From a virus: 39,735 nt of DNA. The stretch is from UHGV virus genome UHGV-1362164. One strand, written 5' to 3'. Position numbers and translations under genes: made by a program. The notes below the pieces were generated by a model, which had not been told where the DNA came from, made no database searches, and saw nothing but the letters and a program-made list of their open reading frames with translations. This document shows, piece by piece, positions 1,547-39,735 of this stretch (the stretch's first letter is position 1; every line of letters begins with the position of its first letter).

Positions 1547-1620
1547 GTACCCTTAGCTCAGTTGGTTAGAGCAGACGGCTCATAACCGTCCGGTCGTAGG
1601 TTCGAGTCCTACAGGGTACA
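1547..1620 (+). tRNA. tRNA-Met (anticodon CAT; could also be the tRNA-Ile2 lysidine type)
   Basis: Cloverleaf folded by hand. Acceptor GTACCCT/AGGGTAC plus discriminator A. D arm TAGCTCAGTTGGTTAGAGCA. Anticodon stem GACGG/CCGTC with loop CTCATAA. T arm GTAGG-TTCGAGT-CCTAC. No encoded CCA. Confidence 0.85.
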
Positions 1621-1814
1621 TTCTATTTTTGAAAGAAAAATGAAAACTGATTATAAAGAGTTTTCGCCAATTGACAGCGTAAGTTTTTTGTAGTTTACTT
1701 AAGTTAGCTAATGACATATACGTCATTTTTGTAATGAGATGAGCGTATATGTATAAAGTACGCTTGTTTTCTTATGCTTTTGATGATTGACAAAATGTGA
1801 AAGAGGTGACTAGA

Positions 1815-2462
1815 ATGATTTGGACTAATGAACGAAGAAAAAAATTAATCTCTTGGCTAATAAAAAATGGACCAAAAGAGTATTATTCTGCTCTCAAAAC
1901 TCAGAAGTTCTTATTCTTTTTTGAGTCTTTTTCAAAAATCAATAATCAAGACTATGATTTTTCTAAATTAAAAGCGTATAAGAACGGGCCTGTTTTTAGT
2001 GAAGTCTATGGTGATTATAAATATAACTTTGAAGAACTTACGGAAGAAAGTTCGAAAATGACACTAGATAATATAGATACTATCACTGCGAAAAAAGCTC
2101 ATTTTCTAACTCAAATTATGAATAATGATGAATTATCTACTCTAACTCATCAGTTTGACATGTGGAGAACGCACGAGAGTGAAATAGAAAATGGAGTATT
2201 ACAGATTGAAATGAAGGAGAAAGATTTCACACATTCTGATTGTGAGTTAGCACAAGAATTGTTCGATTTATACGATATTTCTTTTGTAGATAGATCAGAA
2301 GTATTAATCGTTGGGGATAAGCATTTCCTATTCACTAAAAAGGATTTTGCTAGCTTGAATGAAACACAAAAGTCTACTTTAGAGAAGATCGCATTGGAAG
2401 AGGATTTAATTAATCCTGTATATGTAGAGATCGGTAATGAAGGAGATTTGATAATTGACTAA
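1815..2462 (+). CDS. Panacea (DUF4065, SocA/GepA-like) domain protein with ~100-aa C-terminal extension; candidate PanA-type antitoxin
   Basis: RBS AGAGGTGA 6 nt upstream of ATG 1815. Motif block KTQKFLFFFESFS...FSKLKAYKNGPVFSEVYGDYKY matches the Panacea signature (K.QK.L.F.E / AY..GPV...VY..YK). The 3' end overlaps the next gene. Confidence 0.55.
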   Translation: MIWTNERRKKLISWLIKNGPKEYYSALKTQKFLFFFESFSKINNQDYDFSKLKAYKNGPVFSEVYGDYKYNFEELTEESSKMTLDNIDTITAKKAHFLTQIMNNDELSTLTHQFDMWRTHESEIENGVLQIEMKEKDFTHSDCELAQELFDLYDISFVDRSEVLIVGDKHFLFTKKDFASLNETQKSTLEKIALEEDLINPVYVEIGNEGDLIID

Positions 2463-2877
2463 AGTCAAAGATGTTTTTACAGTGAAACTACCTTTCCCAG
2501 ACATTTCTTCTAATCTTGCCACAAAAGCACATATGTATTTATGTATTCAAGCTGGTGAAAATAAGAAAATATTATCTTGTCAAACTAAAAAACCGTTATT
2601 ACTAAGAAATGATAGACCTCCATATAGATATGTAGATTGTAAAGCAGATATTAAAAAAAATCCGTTCAAGAGAGACACGATTATTGCTTGTGATTATTGC
2701 TTCGAACTAAAGGGGATACATGTAGATAGTTCTCTATTAACTTCTTCCAGAAGAGACGTATGTTCAGAAATGTATTATGAAGTAATGAAAAAAATTTCTT
2801 TTTCAAATTTTGGTAGTAAAGTATTAGAAGAAGGAGTATTATTGGCTCTCAATCCGTTATTATCCAAGATTAATTGA
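2455..2877 (+). CDS. Hypothetical 140-aa protein translationally coupled to the Panacea-domain gene; candidate toxin partner
   Basis: TTG start at 2455 with GAAGGAG RBS 9 nt upstream. Overlaps the upstream stop by 8 nt, an operon-like coupling. No TM segment and no family recognised by eye. Weak hairpin (TAGC-GAGA-GCTA) plus T8 at ~2900-2925. Confidence 0.4.
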   Translation: MTKVKDVFTVKLPFPDISSNLATKAHMYLCIQAGENKKILSCQTKKPLLLRNDRPPYRYVDCKADIKKNPFKRDTIIACDYCFELKGIHVDSSLLTSSRRDVCSEMYYEVMKKISFSNFGSKVLEEGVLLALNPLLSKIN

Positions 2878-2972
2878 TTAAAACAATATTAATGCCCCTA
2901 GCGAGAGCTAAGTTTTTTTTCTCATTAAAATAGATGTAGAATAAACATGAACTTTTGAAAGGGGTTAAAAAG

Positions 2973-3200
2973 ATGATTGATGGACGTGAATGTTTTAATC
3001 CTATGATGGTCCCAATCACGGAATTCAGTAGAGGGTTATCTTGGCCACCCACTTATATTAAATGTGATTGTGGCGAGATATTAGCTAGAGATCAGCGACC
3101 TAACGCGACTTATTATTGGAAATGTTCTGAATGTAGGAAGGTGTTCTCTATGGTTAGAGGGACAATTTGTTTAGAGGAAAAAAGGGCTCTTCGTCAATGA
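2973..3200 (+). CDS. Small Zn-ribbon protein (CDCGE...CSECRK); C-terminus altered by the IS insertion
   Basis: ATG 2973 after an AAAGGGG RBS. Two CxxC pairs. Stop codon TGA lies inside the IS left inverted repeat. Without the IS the frame would end a few codons later (..EEK-SSHK*). Confidence 0.35.
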   Translation: MIDGRECFNPMMVPITEFSRGLSWPPTYIKCDCGEILARDQRPNATYYWKCSECRKVFSMVRGTICLEEKRALRQ

Positions 3201-4720
3201 GTGTTGGTGAAGAAATTCAATAGAATAATCGAGATACTCACACGGCTAGACAGCTATCTTGTCTAGCCGTGTTGTTGTTCTGGCTTTAGTCAGTTGGGTA
3301 GTATTCTTAGTTTTCTTAAAATATTTTCCTCGATATAAAAAGATTCGTTCTCGGTAGTTTTGAAAGTTTCTAAAGCCATAGGCAATTCGTTTTAGTACTT
3401 TGATATGGTTATTCAAACATTCTATAGGGCCGTTGGAATAGGGAACGCGCAACGCTCGTTTGATTTCTGTTTGGTATTTCTTGAAGGTCGTGAACACTGG
3501 TTGGTAGTGCTCTGGCAACTCCTTGTAGTCTTCTTTTAGGAGCGCGACGAATTCAGGAACATCTTGTCTTCTGATAACGGAAAGAAAATCCTGGTAGACT
3601 TCATAGCCTCGCTTTAAGGAATCATCATAAGATAATAGCCGATCGACTATCTCTGCTTCTGTCAGATGATCTCGAAATGACGGACGCCAGTAGCGATGCT
3701 GACCTTTCAATTCCCACGCATTCTTTTGAAGTAGTCTCCAGTATTTCTTTAAGTGCTTCGACCGACGATCCCCTTTTTTAAAGGTCTTCATTACTTGAAT
3801 TCGGTGGTTGGTAAAAGCCCGACCAATGTGTTGGCTAATATGAAAGCGATCGGCGACGATTCGGGCATTCGGAAAACACTCTTTCACCAATGTGCGATAG
3901 GGTGTATAGAAATCTGAAACCACTAGACGCACTTGTTCACGGACTTTTATAGGGTAGCGCAAGAAATAGTCGCGTAAAGGATCAAGTTGCCGATTTTCCA
4001 CAATATCAATCAGTTGATGGGTTTTGCCGTCCATCATGACAAAGCTCATGGCTCCCGAGACGTTTTTCACCGATTTGAATTCATCGAAACACACCACTTC
4101 TGGTAACGGCTGGTTCAAAGAAACGGTTTTAGGCCGAAGGCTGCGAAGTATTCGAATGACAGTGGTCGGAGAAATGTGCTTCATACGTGCAATCAAAGAC
4201 ATAGAAATAGGCTCACTTAATAGCTCAAGAATGGCTTGTTTGACTCTGCGGGCAATGGAGCAGCGACGATCACTAACTGAATCTTCTGCTAAAAAAGTCT
4301 TTCCACAGTGTTTACATTTGAAGCGCTGTTTGTTAATCCGCACAATGGTCTTGTAGTTACTGACATCATATTCAATAAGATGGATACTTTTTTCCAGCCC
4401 CATTTAATGATCGTTTGCTTATTTTGATAGTGGCAATGGAAGCATTCCTCTGGTTGATAGGTCAATGTGCCATCAAAAACAAAACATGTTTCGTCATTAA
4501 TGCGCTCTTTGCGAAAGGCATCTTCATGAAAGGTAAGATTTAGGTCTAGAATATCTAGTAACTCTTTGGTAAACTCTGAATAGGACATCTTGAAACACTC
4601 CTTTGAATGGTTTTCGTCGACTTTATTCTAAAGGATTTCAAGGTGTCTGTTTGCGTTTATTAGAAAAAAGAAAAAGTATTGGCAACAGAAGGCGTCACCA
4701 ACACTAGATATTATAGAGCC
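3185..4720 (-). mobile_element. ISL3-family insertion sequence (1536 bp), complete, flanked by a perfect 8-bp target-site duplication GAAAAAAG
   Basis: Imperfect terminal inverted repeats: GGCTCTtcgtcaatgAGTGTTGGTGA at 3185 and the reverse complement of cACCAACACTagatattatAGAGCC ending at 4720. Direct repeat GAAAAAAG at 3177-3184 and 4721-4728. The size and the 8-bp TSD are typical for the ISL3 family. Confidence 0.75.
3246..4588 (-). pseudogene. ISL3-family transposase split into two overlapping ORFs (4289..4588 and 3246..4403) by a -1 frame change in an A6 run
   Basis: The N-terminal ORF carries a zf-ISL3-like CxxC..HxH motif (ECFHCHYQNKQTIIKWG). The downstream ORF continues with RINKQRFKCKHCGKTF and a DDE-type body. 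The two frames meet at TGG-AAAAAA-GTA (plus-strand T6 at 4388-4393). RBS AAAGGAG precedes ATG 4588. This could be a homopolymer error, an inactivating mutation or slippage. Confidence 0.7.
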
Positions 4721-4852
4721 GAAAAAAGTTCCCACAAATAGAATATGTTATACTGATTAGGTGGATAGCTTGGCTAACCACCTCACTTTCGATTGCTCCA
4801 CTTCTTGCTGATCCGAGGAGTGGGGTATTTTTTTGTAGATAGGCTAAAGTTG

Positions 4853-5173
4853 TTATACAATAATTTTCCCATGATCAATGCGATAACTGTAGATTTCGAT
4901 TTTCCTATTATTCCAACAGAATATTTGTTTATTCTTATGAAGCAGTAAAATAGAAAAAAAGGTTTTAGTGCTCATTGGAGCCTTCCTGTTCTGGCGAAAA
5001 AAGATGAGGTTTCCCTCATCATCGGGTTTGGCAGTAGTCAGGGGAATTAAGGTACTACCCATCTGTGTAAAAATCCCTGTATATTCCTCATGAAAAGGAT
5101 TCGCAGTTAGTTGTCTCAATAATTCGCCAGCCTTCATTTCATACCTTCTTCCGTTGGAATCTACTTGATTCAA
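4853..5173 (-). CDS. Hypothetical ORF (106 aa), possibly a gene remnant
   Basis: Open frame only. No convincing RBS, and a low-complexity C-terminus. Kept at low confidence. Confidence 0.15.
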   Translation of the reverse strand: MNQVDSNGRRYEMKAGELLRQLTANPFHEEYTGIFTQMGSTLIPLTTAKPDDEGNLIFFRQNRKAPMSTKTFFSILLLHKNKQIFCWNNRKIEIYSYRIDHGKIIV

Positions 5174-5379
5174 ATTTTAGCATGATACTTGTCTTGCCGA
5201 CAACTGAATATCTTCTTACGATATCAGTTCCTGATTTTTAAACACGATTTACTTATAGTATGCAGGCTTATATTAAAATTAAATTATAAATAAACAATGT
5301 TATTGAAAAACAATAGATAAAACATTAATATATAAAAGTTGCAATGTCGCTTTTATATATGAAAGGAGAAAATTGAATA

Positions 5380-6066
5380 ATGAAAAGGAAAAAATATGTA
5401 GTCGTAACACTCATCATTGTAATAGCTTTTATTGGTTTAGCCGGTAAAAATTATGCAGACAGTATTTTAAACTGGGGTGGGGAACAGAATATTTCTACCA
5501 TCAATGATAACTTAGATAAGTTGAATGATTCATTATCAGATAAAGAACAGAAAATCATACAATTATCCAATAAATCAGCAAGTACAGAGGGCCAATTAAC
5601 TCAATTTCAAAAAGATATTGATAGTTACAAGCAACAGTTAGAAGCTTTGAAAAATGAAAAAAATCAATTAGCTGGAGAAAAAACTAGTTTAGAATCTCAA
5701 TTAAATAGTAAAAATGGAGAACTTCAATCTAAACAGCAAGAAATCGCAGATAAATTAAAGGAAATTGAGCAGAAAAACCAAGAGATCAATCAGAAAAACC
5801 AAGAATTTAATACTAAATTGCAGGATGCACAAAATAAAGCTAATGATTTACAAAATACCATTAATTCACTAAATAACCAGATTAACACTTTAAACAGTGA
5901 AAAAAATTCTTTGCAAGCAGAACTGGATTCTACTAAACAACAATTAGCAAGTGCAAACAAAGAAAATTCTAATTTAAAAGCTTATATTGATAAATTAAAC
6001 AAGGCTAAACAAGATGTAAAAGATACAGCTAACAAGTCTCAACAAATAGTTGATCAACATCAATAA
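5380..6066 (+). CDS. Membrane-anchored coiled-coil protein (N-terminal TM or signal anchor, Q/N/K/E-rich heptad region)
   Basis: RBS AAAGGAG plus ATG. Residues 7-22 are hydrophobic (VVVTLIIVIAFIGLAG), followed by ~190 aa of coiled-coil-like repeats (NEKNQLAGEKTSLESQLNSKNGELQSKQQEI...). Possible promoter TTGAAA-17-TAATAT at ~5302-5330. Terminator at 6168-6204. Confidence 0.6.
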   Translation: MKRKKYVVVTLIIVIAFIGLAGKNYADSILNWGGEQNISTINDNLDKLNDSLSDKEQKIIQLSNKSASTEGQLTQFQKDIDSYKQQLEALKNEKNQLAGEKTSLESQLNSKNGELQSKQQEIADKLKEIEQKNQEINQKNQEFNTKLQDAQNKANDLQNTINSLNNQINTLNSEKNSLQAELDSTKQQLASANKENSNLKAYIDKLNKAKQDVKDTANKSQQIVDQHQ

Positions 6067-6421: not shown

Positions 6422-6637
6422 TTGAATACTATTTGAATACCAAAAAGTAGGTATTCAAGAAAGTTCAAGAGTATCAAACGCAAACTGAAACATTGATATC
6501 ATCGTGTTTTATCTTCGATTATCATCTATTAGCAGGATGATATTTGATGATAAGAATCAGATTAGTAGTGATATGATCGGCTTTGTACCAGCAATGTTTG
6601 TTGCTTTTGGTAGGAATGAATACCATGTTGAATACCA
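6422..6637. promoter_or_regulatory. Cluster of (T)TGAATAC(C) repeats next to the int 3' end; putative integrase arm-type binding sites (attL/attP arm)
   Basis: TTGAATAC at 6422-6429 and 6433-6440. An inverted copy GTATTCAA at 6451-6458. TGAATACCA at 6617-6625 and 6629-6637. Further short palindromes (TTATCATC...GATGATAA) at ~6520-6570. Confidence 0.35.
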
Positions 6638-6640
6638 TTT

Positions 6641-7783
6641 TTAGGAATTCATGTATTTTAGAAAATTTGTTGCAGTATCTTTTTCAGCGTTCTTAGTGAC
6701 ATGGGCATACACATCTAAAGTTGTTTTTACGTCTGTGTGCCCTAACCGCTCTTGAACCTGCTTTATGGTTGCGCCAGACTCAAAAAGCAAACTCGCATGA
6801 GTGTGGCGAAAACCATGAGTAGTTATTTTGAAGTCTCTATAAGATGGTTTTGCTAAAATACTCTGAAGTATACTTTTATAAAAAAGTTCATTTTGAGGGT
6901 TTGAGAATAGTAGTTGTTTCTCGTCAGATTTAATTCTAATTCCTCTGCTGAACAACAATTTCTTTTGATTAAGCCGCCAGTTTTTCAAAAGAGTAATAGT
7001 ATCATGGTCTAATGAGAGCGATCGCTCGGATGCAGTAGTTTTTGTTGTCGATACAAATTTTTCGTTTTCCACATATGATGCATTTTTTGTAATAGAGAGT
7101 ATTTCGTTTGAGAAATCGACATCTTCCCATGTTAATGCCAGTAATTCACCGCGGCGGATTCCAGTATAGGCTAGGACATGAAACATGGTGTAAATCTGTT
7201 CAGACTCATGATTTTTTATTTCGGAAAGAAAACTCTTCAACTGTATTTTATCCAGAAAATTTTGTTTGTCTTTAGATTTCAATTCGCGCTGCACTTTAGG
7301 TGTAATGACTCGATCCATAGGATTCTCTTTCAACAGTCGTTGTTGTATTGCAAATGAGAATATTTTTGAGGTGTACATCTTTATAGCTCTATAACTCTTA
7401 TACTTCTCACTCCAGGCGTTGACGATTTTTTGGCAATAGGTAACAGTGATTTTATCCAATTTAAGATGTCCGAATTCTGGAAGAATCTGTTGATCAAAAT
7501 AATATTTTATCCGATGTGCTGATGCGCGTTTTACAGTATTTTTATATTGAACAATCCATAGCTCATATACATCCTTAAATGTACTATAGTCCTGTTTAAT
7601 GAATCCCTGAGACCCAACCTCAAGCTGCAATTGCGCAAGGGCTAGCTTTGCTTCCTTCTGCGTTTTAAACCCACGCCTTGTAGTTCGTTTACTTTTTCCA
7701 GTCAACGGATCAACGCCCAAGTATGCGTTAAACATATAAGCGGTTGAACCATCTTTTTTTGTGTATTTTTTGATATTTGCCAT
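6641..7783 (-). CDS. int: Phage tyrosine integrase (site-specific recombinase, phage integrase family)
   Basis: 380 aa. N-terminal SAM-like/arm-binding region. Catalytic C-terminus with ...TGIRRGELLALTWEDVD...HGFRHTHASLL...LGHTDVKTTLDVYAHV (R..HxxR..Y). Transcribed towards the tRNA side, the classic prophage-end arrangement. Confidence 0.9.
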   Translation of the reverse strand: MANIKKYTKKDGSTAYMFNAYLGVDPLTGKSKRTTRRGFKTQKEAKLALAQLQLEVGSQGFIKQDYSTFKDVYELWIVQYKNTVKRASAHRIKYYFDQQILPEFGHLKLDKITVTYCQKIVNAWSEKYKSYRAIKMYTSKIFSFAIQQRLLKENPMDRVITPKVQRELKSKDKQNFLDKIQLKSFLSEIKNHESEQIYTMFHVLAYTGIRRGELLALTWEDVDFSNEILSITKNASYVENEKFVSTTKTTASERSLSLDHDTITLLKNWRLNQKKLLFSRGIRIKSDEKQLLFSNPQNELFYKSILQSILAKPSYRDFKITTHGFRHTHASLLFESGATIKQVQERLGHTDVKTTLDVYAHVTKNAEKDTATNFLKYMNS

Positions 7784-7847
7784 AGTATCGCATCCTTTCG
7801 AATGTATGTTCTTTTTGAGTATTTAAAGAAAAGCCCGAAGGCTAATC

Positions 7848-8000
7848 TTAATCATTTTCTTTTAAAACTTTTTCAATGTCTTTTTTTGCTTGTACATAGT
7901 GGCTAGCCACTTGCTTGGCAGACTTGTGATCTAAGTCTACTTTTCCTAAGTAAATGATCGCTACATCGTGAGCAGCTTTCCTAATTTCTTCATCTGACAT
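7848..8000 (-). CDS. Small hypothetical protein (50 aa), below the size cutoff of the ORF track
   Basis: ATG at 8000 preceded by AAGGTGA. Translation MSDEEIRKAAHDVAIIYLGKVDLDHKSAKQVASHYVQAKKDIEKVLKEND. The stop is followed immediately by the hairpin AGCC-TTCG-GGCT plus a T-run on the minus strand (plus coordinates 7832-7843). Confidence 0.35.
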   Translation of the reverse strand: MSDEEIRKAAHDVAIIYLGKVDLDHKSAKQVASHYVQAKKDIEKVLKEND

Positions 8001-8074
8001 TTTGATTCACCTTCTTTCTTTTTTGATCTAATCAAACTAGCAACGCTAGGTGGTAAAAAGCCCGAAGGCTATTC

Positions 8075-8290
8075 TTACTTTTCCATCCAAGTTTTACCAC
8101 AAGAGCTGCATTGAAATTCACGAGTTTTTTTCTTTCCACCTAAAATACTTCTCTTTGCTTTCTGTTTGTGATTAAAAACTGTCAGGTTTAAAGGGTTTAG
8201 ATTGATACTTGTTTTTTGTTTAGTATTTAATCCTGATGCAATAAGTTGCACGTTTGTAGACTTGCATTTTGGACATTTCAATTTCCCCAT
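8075..8290 (-). CDS. Small zinc-ribbon protein (CPKC...CSSC), 71 aa, between int and repressor
   Basis: Two CxxC pairs at the ends. Stop followed by hairpin AGCC-TTCG-GGCT plus a T-run (plus coordinates 8059-8070). Confidence 0.45.
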   Translation of the reverse strand: MGKLKCPKCKSTNVQLIASGLNTKQKTSINLNPLNLTVFNHKQKAKRSILGGKKKTREFQCSSCGKTWMEK

Positions 8291-8380
8291 TTCTTAAATT
8301 ATCCTTTCCAATATTCCAATATAAAATATTTTAAAACAAGCTTACCCTAGCCGAAGTTGCAACTTCGACTGGGGTATTTT

Positions 8381-9088
8381 TTATATAATCACACGACCAA
8401 TAATATACAGATCATCTAATTCGTCAGAATAAAAATCGGGATACAAACGGTCACCATTTTTATCAACGTCTGTATTCAATGAAACCAACCTCAATCTATC
8501 GCCTTCTAAATACATCTTCTTTATAAAAGCTTCTTCATTGATTTCAACAGCCCCGATTTGTCCATTAAACACATCGTTCGTTTCTTTCACGAAAACTATT
8601 TCCCCATCTTCAAATGTAGGGTACATACTATCGCCTGCTACTTGAAAAGCTAGGTCGTAATGAGAAGGTGTACTTCCGACTTCAACTGTTTCTACACAAT
8701 TTTTATCATTATATGTTCCTCCACCAGCAGAAAGTTTACCAGCTATTTCAACAGTAGTAGATTTCGTAGGCATCATTACGATAACTTTATTGTTAGTTTG
8801 TAATCTCGTTTGTTCGTCTAGTTGATGTTGAGCGAAGTTATAGACTTTGGATTGACGTTCAGGGATAAGCTGATTGTAAATGGTCTCTATAGAAGAAACA
8901 TTATCAGACTCCCAACCCATTAAATAAGCAGGTGTTGTTTGTAGTATCTTTGCGATATCATCCAAGATATTAGTTGGTAATTTTTCTATTTCACCTTTTT
9001 CGTATCTAAAAATAGTTGAGCGAGAAACACCAAGTCGTTCAGCAACCACATCGGCGCTGAGTTTTAACTGTTTTCTGCGCAACTTCAT
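8381..9088 (-). CDS. CI-like lysogeny repressor: N-terminal HTH_XRE domain plus C-terminal S24 (LexA-like) autopeptidase domain
   Basis: Start chosen at MKLRRKQLKLSADVVAERLGVSRSTIFRYEKGE (RBS GGAGA); an alternative GTG start lies at 9106 after AGGAGG. The C-terminus has AGDSMYPTF...G (S24 Ser in GDSM) and a later Lys. The six-frame ORF extends further upstream, but that extension is nonsense. Confidence 0.85.
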   Translation of the reverse strand: MKLRRKQLKLSADVVAERLGVSRSTIFRYEKGEIEKLPTNILDDIAKILQTTPAYLMGWESDNVSSIETIYNQLIPERQSKVYNFAQHQLDEQTRLQTNNKVIVMMPTKSTTVEIAGKLSAGGGTYNDKNCVETVEVGSTPSHYDLAFQVAGDSMYPTFEDGEIVFVKETNDVFNGQIGAVEINEEAFIKKMYLEGDRLRLVSLNTDVDKNGDRLYPDFYSDELDDLYIIGRVII

Positions 9089-9119
9089 GCGTTCTCCTAT
9101 GTTCACGTTAACACCTCCT

Positions 9120-9266
9120 GAAAACAGTATAAAACAAATGTTGCAAAAACGCAACAAAAAATATCGCATAAATGCAACTTTTTTATTGACAGTTGCTTTT
9201 TTTGTGGTATATTGAAAATACGAAGTCGCGATAATGCGACTTAAAAAGTTGGGAGGTGGAAATATT
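9120..9266. promoter_or_regulatory. Genetic-switch region: divergent cI and cro promoters with repeated operator half-sites
   Basis: Rightward promoter: TTGACA-16-TATATT (9187-9214) then RBS GGAGGTGG. Leftward promoter (minus strand): TTGCGT-17-TATACT then AGGAGG. Operator-like dyads: GTTGCAAAAACGCAAC (9140-9155), the related ATCGCATAAATGCAAC (9162-9177), GCAAC...GTTGC (9174-9196) overlapping the -35, and the separate palindrome AAGTCGCgataatGCGACTT (9224-9243). Confidence 0.6.
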
Positions 9267-9473
9267 ATGATCAACACTTCAAAATTAAAAGGACTTATCG
9301 TTGAAAGAGGAACTACTCAACAGGCGGTAGCTGATTCTATTGGAATCGACAGAAGTACTTTTTATAGGAAAATGAAAAAGGGAGGAGATTTTTCTATCGA
9401 AGAAGCGAAAAAAATGAAAGAAGAAATTCCCTTATCTGATGATGAAGCAATAACTATTTTTTTTTGGAAATAA
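9267..9473 (+). CDS. Cro-like HTH_XRE regulator
   Basis: ATG 9267 after GGGAGGTGG. HTH segment TTQQAVADSIGIDRSTFYRKMKKG. Divergent from cI. Confidence 0.7.
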   Translation: MINTSKLKGLIVERGTTQQAVADSIGIDRSTFYRKMKKGGDFSIEEAKKMKEEIPLSDDEAITIFFWK

Positions 9474-9524
9474 AGTCGCATTTACGCTACAAAACAAACA
9501 ACCAACCTAGGGGGTGTAACCACA

Positions 9525-9851
9525 ATGTCAACCACAACAGACGAGTTAGCAAACATGATTAAGCGAATGGTTGATGAAATCGTTGACGAGAAAATGAAAG
9601 TTATTGAAGATACCTACTTTGCCAAGTCAAAGCAAACACTTTTCACCAAAGCTCAACTCGCTGAAAAGTGGGGGTGCTCGGTTGGAACTGTGGATAAAAT
9701 TCTTAAAAACGGTGGTGTAGAGCCTGTTGCGAAACGGGGTAAAAATTTTGAGTATCCAATCGTACTCGCACAAGAAGCAAAAGATTATCACGACAGCCGA
9801 GGCATAAAAGATCATCAAGTATCTGTACGAGCAAGAGCGATCAAAACATAA
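9525..9851 (+). CDS. Small HTH DNA-binding protein (excisionase/MerR-like fold by motif)
   Basis: RBS GGGGGTG. Motif FTKAQLAEKWGCSVGTVDKILKNGGVEPV. The location after cro is typical for Xis-like or early regulator genes. Function is an inference. Confidence 0.4.
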   Translation: MSTTTDELANMIKRMVDEIVDEKMKVIEDTYFAKSKQTLFTKAQLAEKWGCSVGTVDKILKNGGVEPVAKRGKNFEYPIVLAQEAKDYHDSRGIKDHQVSVRARAIKT

Positions 9852-18664: not shown

Positions 18665-18946
18665 CTCCTAGTATTTATTATACAACGATCGTTATGTTTG
18701 ACAATATAATTATGTCACTGTGGCAGACTGGGGAAATGCAGAGGATATGCACAAGGTGTGTACGACTCGTTAGCAAGGTTAGGATCCTTGCCAGTGACTT
18801 AGGGAGGACTCTACTGCTACTGCATGGAGTATCTGACCCAAAAGAGATTGAGCAATAAGCATGAGGCAATCAGACCACTGAATTATCCCAGGGCTTTTGC
18901 TGGATAAACAATCTCAATAGCATGCTAGGAGGTAGCTCCTCCAAGT

Positions 18947-19022
18947 TGACGTGTAGCATCATTGGTGATGCGTCTGACTGTTAGAGTTGGAAATGAGGTC
19001 GGTTCGAATCTGGCCGCGTCAA
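18947..19022 (+). other. Degenerate tRNA-like element (not a confident tRNA)
   Basis: 7-bp acceptor TGACGTG/CGCGTCA with one G-U. Perfect D stem GCAT/ATGC. Canonical T loop TTCGAAT with a G-U-containing stem GTCGG/CTGGC. Weak anticodon stem CTGAC/GTTGG with loop TGTTAGA (the central triplet would be TTA, but position 33 is G). 7-nt variable region and 2-nt D/anticodon spacer. Confidence 0.25.
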
Positions 19023-19103
19023 TTAATGCAACCGAGGATAGAAGTGGTACGTGGAGGATCAGCACGATGACGGTGCTATGTAGGTTGCTTTATACATAAT
19101 CAA

Positions 19104-39671: not shown

Positions 39672-39735
39672 ATGAAAAAGAAAATTATTGTAGGAGCTAT
39701 TGTAGCTCTTTTTTTGTTGCCAATTTTTCCAGGAA
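39672..39735 (+). CDS. Start of a small membrane protein (second holin-like gene), truncated by the window end
   Basis: RBS AGGAGAGAA. Sequence MKKKIIVGAIVALFLLPIFPG... The lysin gene presumably follows outside the window. Confidence 0.3.
   Translation, partial: MKKKIIVGAIVALFLLPIFPG

Follow-up and report, generated by a model that had tools for sequence, protein, structure and literature searches.

PanAT toxin-antitoxin (TA) systems were defined by Kurata et al. (2022) as pairs of genes that lie at most 100 nt apart and are kept in at least two species; among their toxins (PanT), clusters T5, T6 and T9 are PemK/MazF-like (PMC8832971). Two MazF-like PanTs, those of the P. moraviensis and B. 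ruminantium pairs, have been validated as translation inhibitors that bind their Panacea-domain antitoxin, PanA (PMC8832971). The Panacea fold is compact and helical, with elements alpha1-alpha7 and beta1-beta2, and Ernits et al. (2023) proposed that the domain acts as a sensor (PMC10440598). Here we describe a related gene pair in UHGV virus genome UHGV-1362164, analysed over its whole stretch of 39,735 nt (the window). It consists of open reading frame (ORF) A, which starts with ATG and encodes an acidic, PanA-like putative antitoxin of 215 aa (1815..2462, plus strand), and ORF-B, which starts with TTG and encodes a basic putative toxin of 140 aa (2455..2877, plus strand). In our judgement the pair is probably a type II PanAT module, in which ORF-B would be a MazF-superfamily endoribonuclease and ORF-A would bind it directly and so neutralise it, probably by means of the acidic C-terminal domain. 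The coupling of the two genes, the pairing of their charges, their mobility and setting, and the precedent of validated PanA:MazF-like pairs all argue for this reading.

The likeness to PanAT loci with EndoA/PemK/MazF-like toxins includes the gene order, with the Panacea antitoxin gene first and a small, overlapping gene for a MazF-fold toxin behind it. Domain databases also often fail to pick up MazF-like PanTs, which are then identified only through HHpred or structure, and their pairs too are found on prophages. Differences are that no similarity of ORF-B to gp28 of Listeria phage B025 (T9) or to classical MazF/Kid toxins is detectable in sequence or profile, that ORF-A is extended at its C terminus by an additional acidic domain of ~90 aa, and that the partnership is fixed in this clade instead of promiscuous. 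The accessions and genera of this family do not occur in the part of Dataset S1 of PMC8832971 that was consulted, and they may be listed elsewhere in it.

Re-reading of the sequence bore out the coordinates and features given for both genes in the preliminary description. A Shine-Dalgarno-like element, AAAGAGGTGA (1800..1809, plus strand), is separated from the ORF-A start codon by 5 nt, and the homologues of ORF-A begin at equivalent MIW(T/S)N residues. The corresponding element of ORF-B, GAAGGAGA (2439..2446, plus strand), lies within codons 209-211 of ORF-A; both were read directly from the sequence. At the junction, ATTGACTAA, the start of ORF-B shares 8 nt with the final codons of ORF-A, stop included (TTGACTAA, 2455..2462, plus strand). 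This overlap is identical in all 50 non-identical homologous pairs with complete ends. ORF-B starts with TTG in 49 of them, the ORF-A codon before the junction is xTT in every one, and a GGAG, GGGG or GGTG element stands 8-10 nt upstream of the ORF-B start across the 50 listed junctions. Both genes belong to conserved protein families and the overlap and its TTG are so constant that the arrangement goes beyond chance, and the translational coupling suggested earlier is supported in silico. The two products are of opposite charge, with isoelectric points of 4.8 for ORF-A (family median 4.7) and 9.2 for ORF-B (family median 8.9). The anatomy of the pair is that of an antitoxin-first type II module in which a weak start codon and translational coupling govern synthesis of the toxin.

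The strict association of the two genes is also evident from their distribution. With the ORF-A profile alone 69 loci were retrieved, 32 on contigs taken at one genome per species and 37 on viral contigs, and in 65 an ORF-B gene, recognised by its family hidden Markov model (HMM), lies directly downstream on the same strand; these include one copy of ORF-B interrupted by a stop (L039). The four exceptions are two contig ends and two loci with ORF-B remnants (L010 and L015). A scan based on ORF-B returned only contigs already known through ORF-A. The pair spans Bacillota and Mycoplasmatota, with representatives in Paenibacillus, Lachnospiraceae, Streptococcus, Gemella, Oceanobacillus, Lactobacillaceae and Mycoplasma (genetic code 4), and it thus has the arrangement by which PanAT loci are defined, a two-gene locus with at most 100 nt between the genes that recurs in different species, here in many genera.

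The assignment of ORF-A as a divergent Panacea or PanA-like protein is supported by its homologues, by a sequence motif and by its predicted fold, rather than by its own domain score. The Panacea (DUF4065) domain comprises residues ~1-125 (1815..2189, plus strand) and contains an invariant QKxLFF followed by G58-P59-V60. Against PF13274 (SocA_Panacea) ORF-A reaches only 15.0 bits (E 0.049), below the gathering score of 25.7, yet the alignment covers model positions 2-112 of 113; the signature is thus weaker than the preliminary description implied. About 30 full-length homologues were found by homology search, and 12 of the 24 that were scanned match PF13274 at E<0.1. One of them (P0041, 36% identical to ORF-A) exceeds the gathering score with 27.9 bits and is labelled SocA/DUF4065 antitoxin by NCBI, and another (P0038) reaches 25.2 bits. 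Residues Q30, K31, G58, P59 and V60 do not vary among 24 homologues, and GPV is the published signature motif of Panacea (PMC8832971). The family profile aligns over the QK...GPV core with the Panacea protein gp27 of Listeria phage B025 (E 1.5e-4). A sequence-profile search of the PDB with ORF-A gave no match. The predicted structure of the Panacea part is compact and helical with one beta-hairpin, as in Panacea, and is related to the C-terminal domain of DarG. That domain inhibits DarT (PDB 7YK3); ORF-A differs from DarG in having no macrodomain and in having a MazF-like partner instead of the DarT ADP-ribosyltransferase.

Behind the Panacea domain lies an alpha/beta domain (residues ~126-215; 2190..2459, plus strand) with a net charge of -13 and a conserved NPVYVEI...G.LxID tail. 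It is modelled with a predicted local distance difference test score (pLDDT) above 90 throughout, and D142, L198, N200, P201, L212 and D215 are invariant in this region. Structure comparison yielded no confident fold match attributable to residues 126-215, and the domain differs from all described PanA accessory domains (HTH, PAD1, ZBD and Phd-C). Some of these can neutralise the toxin, namely Phd-C at the C terminus and PAD1 and ZBD at the N terminus, but a stand-alone Panacea domain is also able to neutralise its toxin directly (PMC10440598). The earlier suggestion that the extension is the toxin-specific part of the protein is therefore only partly in agreement with what is known of PanA, and we regard the domain as a candidate toxin-binding element.

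ORF-B belongs to a family of stand-alone proteins of ~130-145 aa (142 clusters at 50% identity), all of them labelled 'hypothetical', and its sole match in the sequence libraries is to the unannotated phrog_29631. The preliminary description recognised no fold in ORF-B and considered a novel toxin domain possible. Sequence routes to remote homology indeed remained empty, but prediction of the structure of 2455..2877 gave a high-confidence model that is a MazF/Kid/CcdB-type barrel of the SH3-like CcdB/MazF superfamily, extended at the C terminus by ~35 aa. The close structural neighbours of the model are all toxins; a fold search of BFVD produced two unnamed 147-aa matches and nothing usable. 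The predicted fold is thus not new, although the sequence family is unannotated, and combinations of PanA with MazF-like toxins have been published (PMC8832971).

Conservation of polar residues among 125 diverse members of the family is highest at H26 (97%), Y28 (98%), Q43 (90%), K46 (90%), T/S75, D80 (88%) and N133 (91%). In MazF the catalytic residues are an Arg in the loop before beta2 and a Thr at the end of beta3. When secondary-structure elements are matched by eye in their order, H26, at the start of beta2, would take the place of the catalytic Arg, Q43/T44, at the end of beta3, that of the Thr, and D80 that of Asp75 in Kid. A zinc site built from the cysteines of ORF-B was rejected, as they are not invariant over the 125 members and C42 is often V or I.

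The genomic setting is that of a mobile element. The window is a complete, circularly permuted genome of a temperate Enterococcus phage, with a 431-aa GH25/LysM endolysin gene that starts at 39673 (39673-39735) and continues at 1-1232. Independent metagenome scaffolds of 39,738 and 39,847 bp contain the same genome in other permutations, and the gene order in the latter is tail, holin, 431-aa GH25/LysM endolysin, the pair, a 75-aa ORF, an ISL3 transposase, a 94-aa ORF, a 228-aa ORF, integrase and cI-like repressor. Because of this permutation and gene order, the pair and the neighbouring tRNA gene are placed inside a phage accessory slot between endolysin and integrase and not in a host island. 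The earlier view of a defence-island-like location between a tRNA and prophage DNA has to be abandoned, as tRNA and pair both lie within the circular phage genome and the tRNA moves with the cassette.

In other genomes the endolysins ahead of the pair are of at least five types (Amidase_2, Amidase_3, Amidase_5, GH25 and M23). The pair is not exclusively phage-associated, since in four of ten sampled cases the gene upstream is something other than an endolysin. It lies at 5001-6063 in a SaPI-like island of S. pseudintermedius (L099), directly after terS and followed by an acetyltransferase gene and Abi_2 (8841-9722); this region resembles a hotspot for accessory or defence genes in a phage satellite. 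In the Streptococcus satellite Javan216 the pair stands at the end of the element, before paratox. The toxin-antitoxin anatomy proposed earlier for the locus is borne out in silico, as a type II-like module on mobile elements that often carry defence genes.

The closest described analogue in the same slot is gp27/gp28 (T9) of Listeria phage B025, a temperate siphophage, where endolysin, PanA, an overlapping small partner, attP and integrase follow each other. B025 gp27 is an unambiguous Panacea protein (PF13274, E 7e-19) of 167 aa, and it lacks the C-terminal domain of ORF-A. Its partner gp28 has no sequence relation to ORF-B, and hhalign found no similarity between them; the two B025 genes overlap by 4 nt with an ordinary start, in contrast to the 8 nt and TTG seen here. 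The MazEF, Kis-Kid and PemIK systems share with the pair an antitoxin-first operon, an acidic antitoxin and a basic toxin. Their antitoxins are AbrB-type or ribbon-helix-helix DNA binders with a disordered tail, whereas ORF-A is based on Panacea, and ORF-B differs from their toxins in lacking a PF02452 match, in its C-terminal extension, and in the His that by-eye correspondence puts at the place of the catalytic Arg of MazF. The type III toxins CptN, AbiQ and ToxN resemble ORF-B in barrel superfamily, in size and in having extra helices, and they too are found on mobile elements of Gram-positive bacteria, where they act as abortive-infection RNases. They differ from the present system in that they are controlled by an RNA-repeat antitoxin, in place of which ORF-B has a fixed protein partner.

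These comparisons suggest how the pair could work. ORF-A and ORF-B would be translated as a coupled unit and, because the start codon of ORF-B is a weak TTG within the 3' end of ORF-A, the toxin would be made after the antitoxin and probably in a smaller amount. ORF-B, as a basic barrel of the MazF/ToxN superfamily, would most likely be a sequence-specific endoribonuclease that arrests translation. ORF-A may bind ORF-B and block it directly, with the acidic C-terminal domain as the likeliest neutralising element, possibly mimicking nucleic acid, and the Panacea domain as scaffold or sensor. The least certain step is the biological role. Since prophages and satellites carry the pair, a function in abortive infection, inter-phage exclusion or stabilisation of the element is suggested: from its slot it could abort infection by competing phages or maintain the element that bears it.

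Several observations weigh against an active MazF-like TA module. Searches of Pfam and NCBIfam, MazF/PemK PF02452 included, gave no match for ORF-B or for 12 family members, a profile search with ORF-B found no PDB sequence at E up to 10, and alignment with hhalign to four MazF/Kid sequences gave a probability of 0.3%. The relationship to MazF is consequently one of predicted structure only, since sequence and profile comparisons found nothing. The 125 family members have no conserved Arg as in the MazF catalytic site, and the correspondence of H26, T44 and D80 to MazF/Kid residues was set by eye, not by superposition. At an E cut-off of 1, neither the two proteins of the pair nor the product of the following ORF matched any model of PADLOC-DB 2.0. 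No promoter was found for ORF-A, and the best sigma-70-like candidate overlaps its start codon. Gene decay is not clearly one-sided and gives no clear pointer to the toxin gene. ORF-B is broken in L010, L015 and L039, but ORF-A is apparently frameshifted or truncated beside a seemingly intact ORF-B in L031 (5910-6552) and L041 (105-734), which could reflect sequencing error or tolerance of ORF-B without its partner. Finally, B025 gp28 was reported as 'not toxic' in E. coli, as were several other PanTs (PMC8832971). By analogy with B025, assays in E. coli alone may mislead.

Part of this evidence would also fit a genuine two-protein complex that does not arrest growth. ORF-B could then be an inert or re-purposed MazF-fold protein, such as an RNA- or DNA-binding regulator or a phage anti-defence factor, and ORF-A its partner or chaperone. 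The missing MazF/PemK sequence match and catalytic Arg, the non-toxic PanTs, gp28 among them, and the retention of ORF-B beside a damaged ORF-A in L031 and L041 agree with this explanation. We nevertheless consider it rather unlikely, in view of the conservation of polar residues at MazF active-site positions (H26, Q43, K46 and D80), the basic/acidic charge pairing that fits a TA system, the invariant coupled translation from a weak start, and the fact that the close structural neighbours are all toxins. Another option is that ORF-B uses the same barrel for a toxic activity other than RNA cleavage, for example as a CcdB-like gyrase poison or a protein with some other target. Replacement of the MazF Arg/Thr pair would be in line with this, and conservation of a fold need not mean conservation of function (PMC10440598). 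The gyrase-binding C-terminal end of CcdB, however, has no evident counterpart in ORF-B, which has a different extension of ~35 aa instead, and such an activity appears improbable. A type III system like ToxIN, AbiQ or CptIN, with a repetitive antitoxin RNA restraining ORF-B and ORF-A unrelated to it, can be dismissed. Tandem Repeats Finder (TRF) detected no array in the vicinity of the genes and listed nothing beyond chance repeats of 8-16 nt in two copies, the tRNA is the only Rfam match, the ORF-B start is embedded in ORF-A at every junction compared, and the two genes strictly co-occur. A PanAT module with a MazF-superfamily endoribonuclease remains the reading that we prefer.

If this reading is correct, the PanAT repertoire gains a new accessory domain of PanA and an unannotated family of MazF-fold toxins with about 140 clusters at 50% identity, and prophages and satellites of Enterococcus, Listeria, Streptococcus and Staphylococcus would commonly carry the pair as an accessory cassette that could shape phage-phage competition and the outcome of phage therapy. 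Because Panacea would be tied to one toxin throughout this clade, it would also offer a contrast for studying the partner-swapping of this domain. PanA:MazF-like pairs as such are already known (PMC8832971); what sets the present pair apart is the unannotated, divergent toxin family, the undescribed acidic antitoxin domain and the fixed partnership. The pair adds to the diversity of PanAT with good support but without surprise, and it is no new category of system. A bolder version, to which we give limited credence, is that a Panacea sensor and an acidic C-terminal neutraliser mimicking nucleic acid control a His-based MazF-superfamily nuclease, and that the module is a widespread, uncatalogued cassette for abortive infection or inter-phage competition in Bacillota prophages and satellites, travelling here with a tRNA.

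The cassette in which the pair moves comprises the tRNA gene, ORF-A and ORF-B (1.37 kb; 1547..2920, plus strand) and is 97.97% identical by blastn to positions 7089-8466 of an E. raffinosus prophage (L001). Homology to this prophage begins exactly at the tRNA (1547), and the flanks differ, with an Amidase_2 lysin in the E. raffinosus prophage and the GH25/LysM lysin in the window. The tRNA gene itself (1547..1620, plus strand), at the left edge of the cassette, was called tRNA-Met with anticodon CAT by ARAGORN, matches Rfam RF00005 with 71 bits and is phage-borne. It does not mark a host tRNA integration site or defence island: no att-like direct repeats were detected and the contig represents a circular phage genome. 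The label of the gene varies between records, being tRNA-Ile for one Enterococcus phage and tRNA-Met in others, and E. hirae phage EH-TP1 contains a stretch that matches it at 100% identity. We take it to resemble a lysidine-type tRNA-Ile2 and not an initiator. It accompanies the pair in the 98%-identical cassette and is absent beside more distant copies.

Upstream of ORF-A a near-consensus sigma-70-like site (1787-1816; TTGACA-18 nt-TAGAAT, 11 of 12 positions matching) was rejected as the promoter for the annotated start, which it cannot drive because its -10 element overlaps the ATG. Two short palindromes, ATGAC-N6-GTCAT and AGCGTA-N11-TACGCT, lie just 5' of this site at about 1712-1765. Downstream, window positions 2921-4849 are an insertion relative to the E. 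raffinosus copy and hold an Enterococcus ISL3 element. This insertion sequence (about 3170-4727) has copies at 98% identity on about 250 Enterococcus plasmids, and its transposase is contained in two overlapping minus-strand ORFs (3246-4403 and 4289-4588), which suggests a frameshift. An 81-aa ORF at 2955-3200 encodes two CxxC pairs in a zinc-ribbon-like arrangement, with weak IBR and recombinase zinc-ribbon matches, and its 3' end enters the insertion sequence. It was discarded as a third conserved gene of the locus, as it sits in the insertion and is missing from the E. raffinosus copy, and it does not accompany the pair at other loci.

ARAGORN also called a 'tRNA-Stop' with anticodon TTA at 18946-19023, a possible ochre suppressor that scores below the Rfam gathering score and may be a false positive. 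Between the insertion sequence and the integrase, a 228-aa protein (5380-6066) combines an N-terminal hydrophobic segment with a long Q/N/K-rich coiled coil and has weak SMC- and PspA-like matches. In an E. gallinarum prophage (L005) a small MazG-family gene (6462-6779) lies between endolysin and pair on the opposite strand; mazG is known as an occasional third gene in mazEF loci (PMC8832971).
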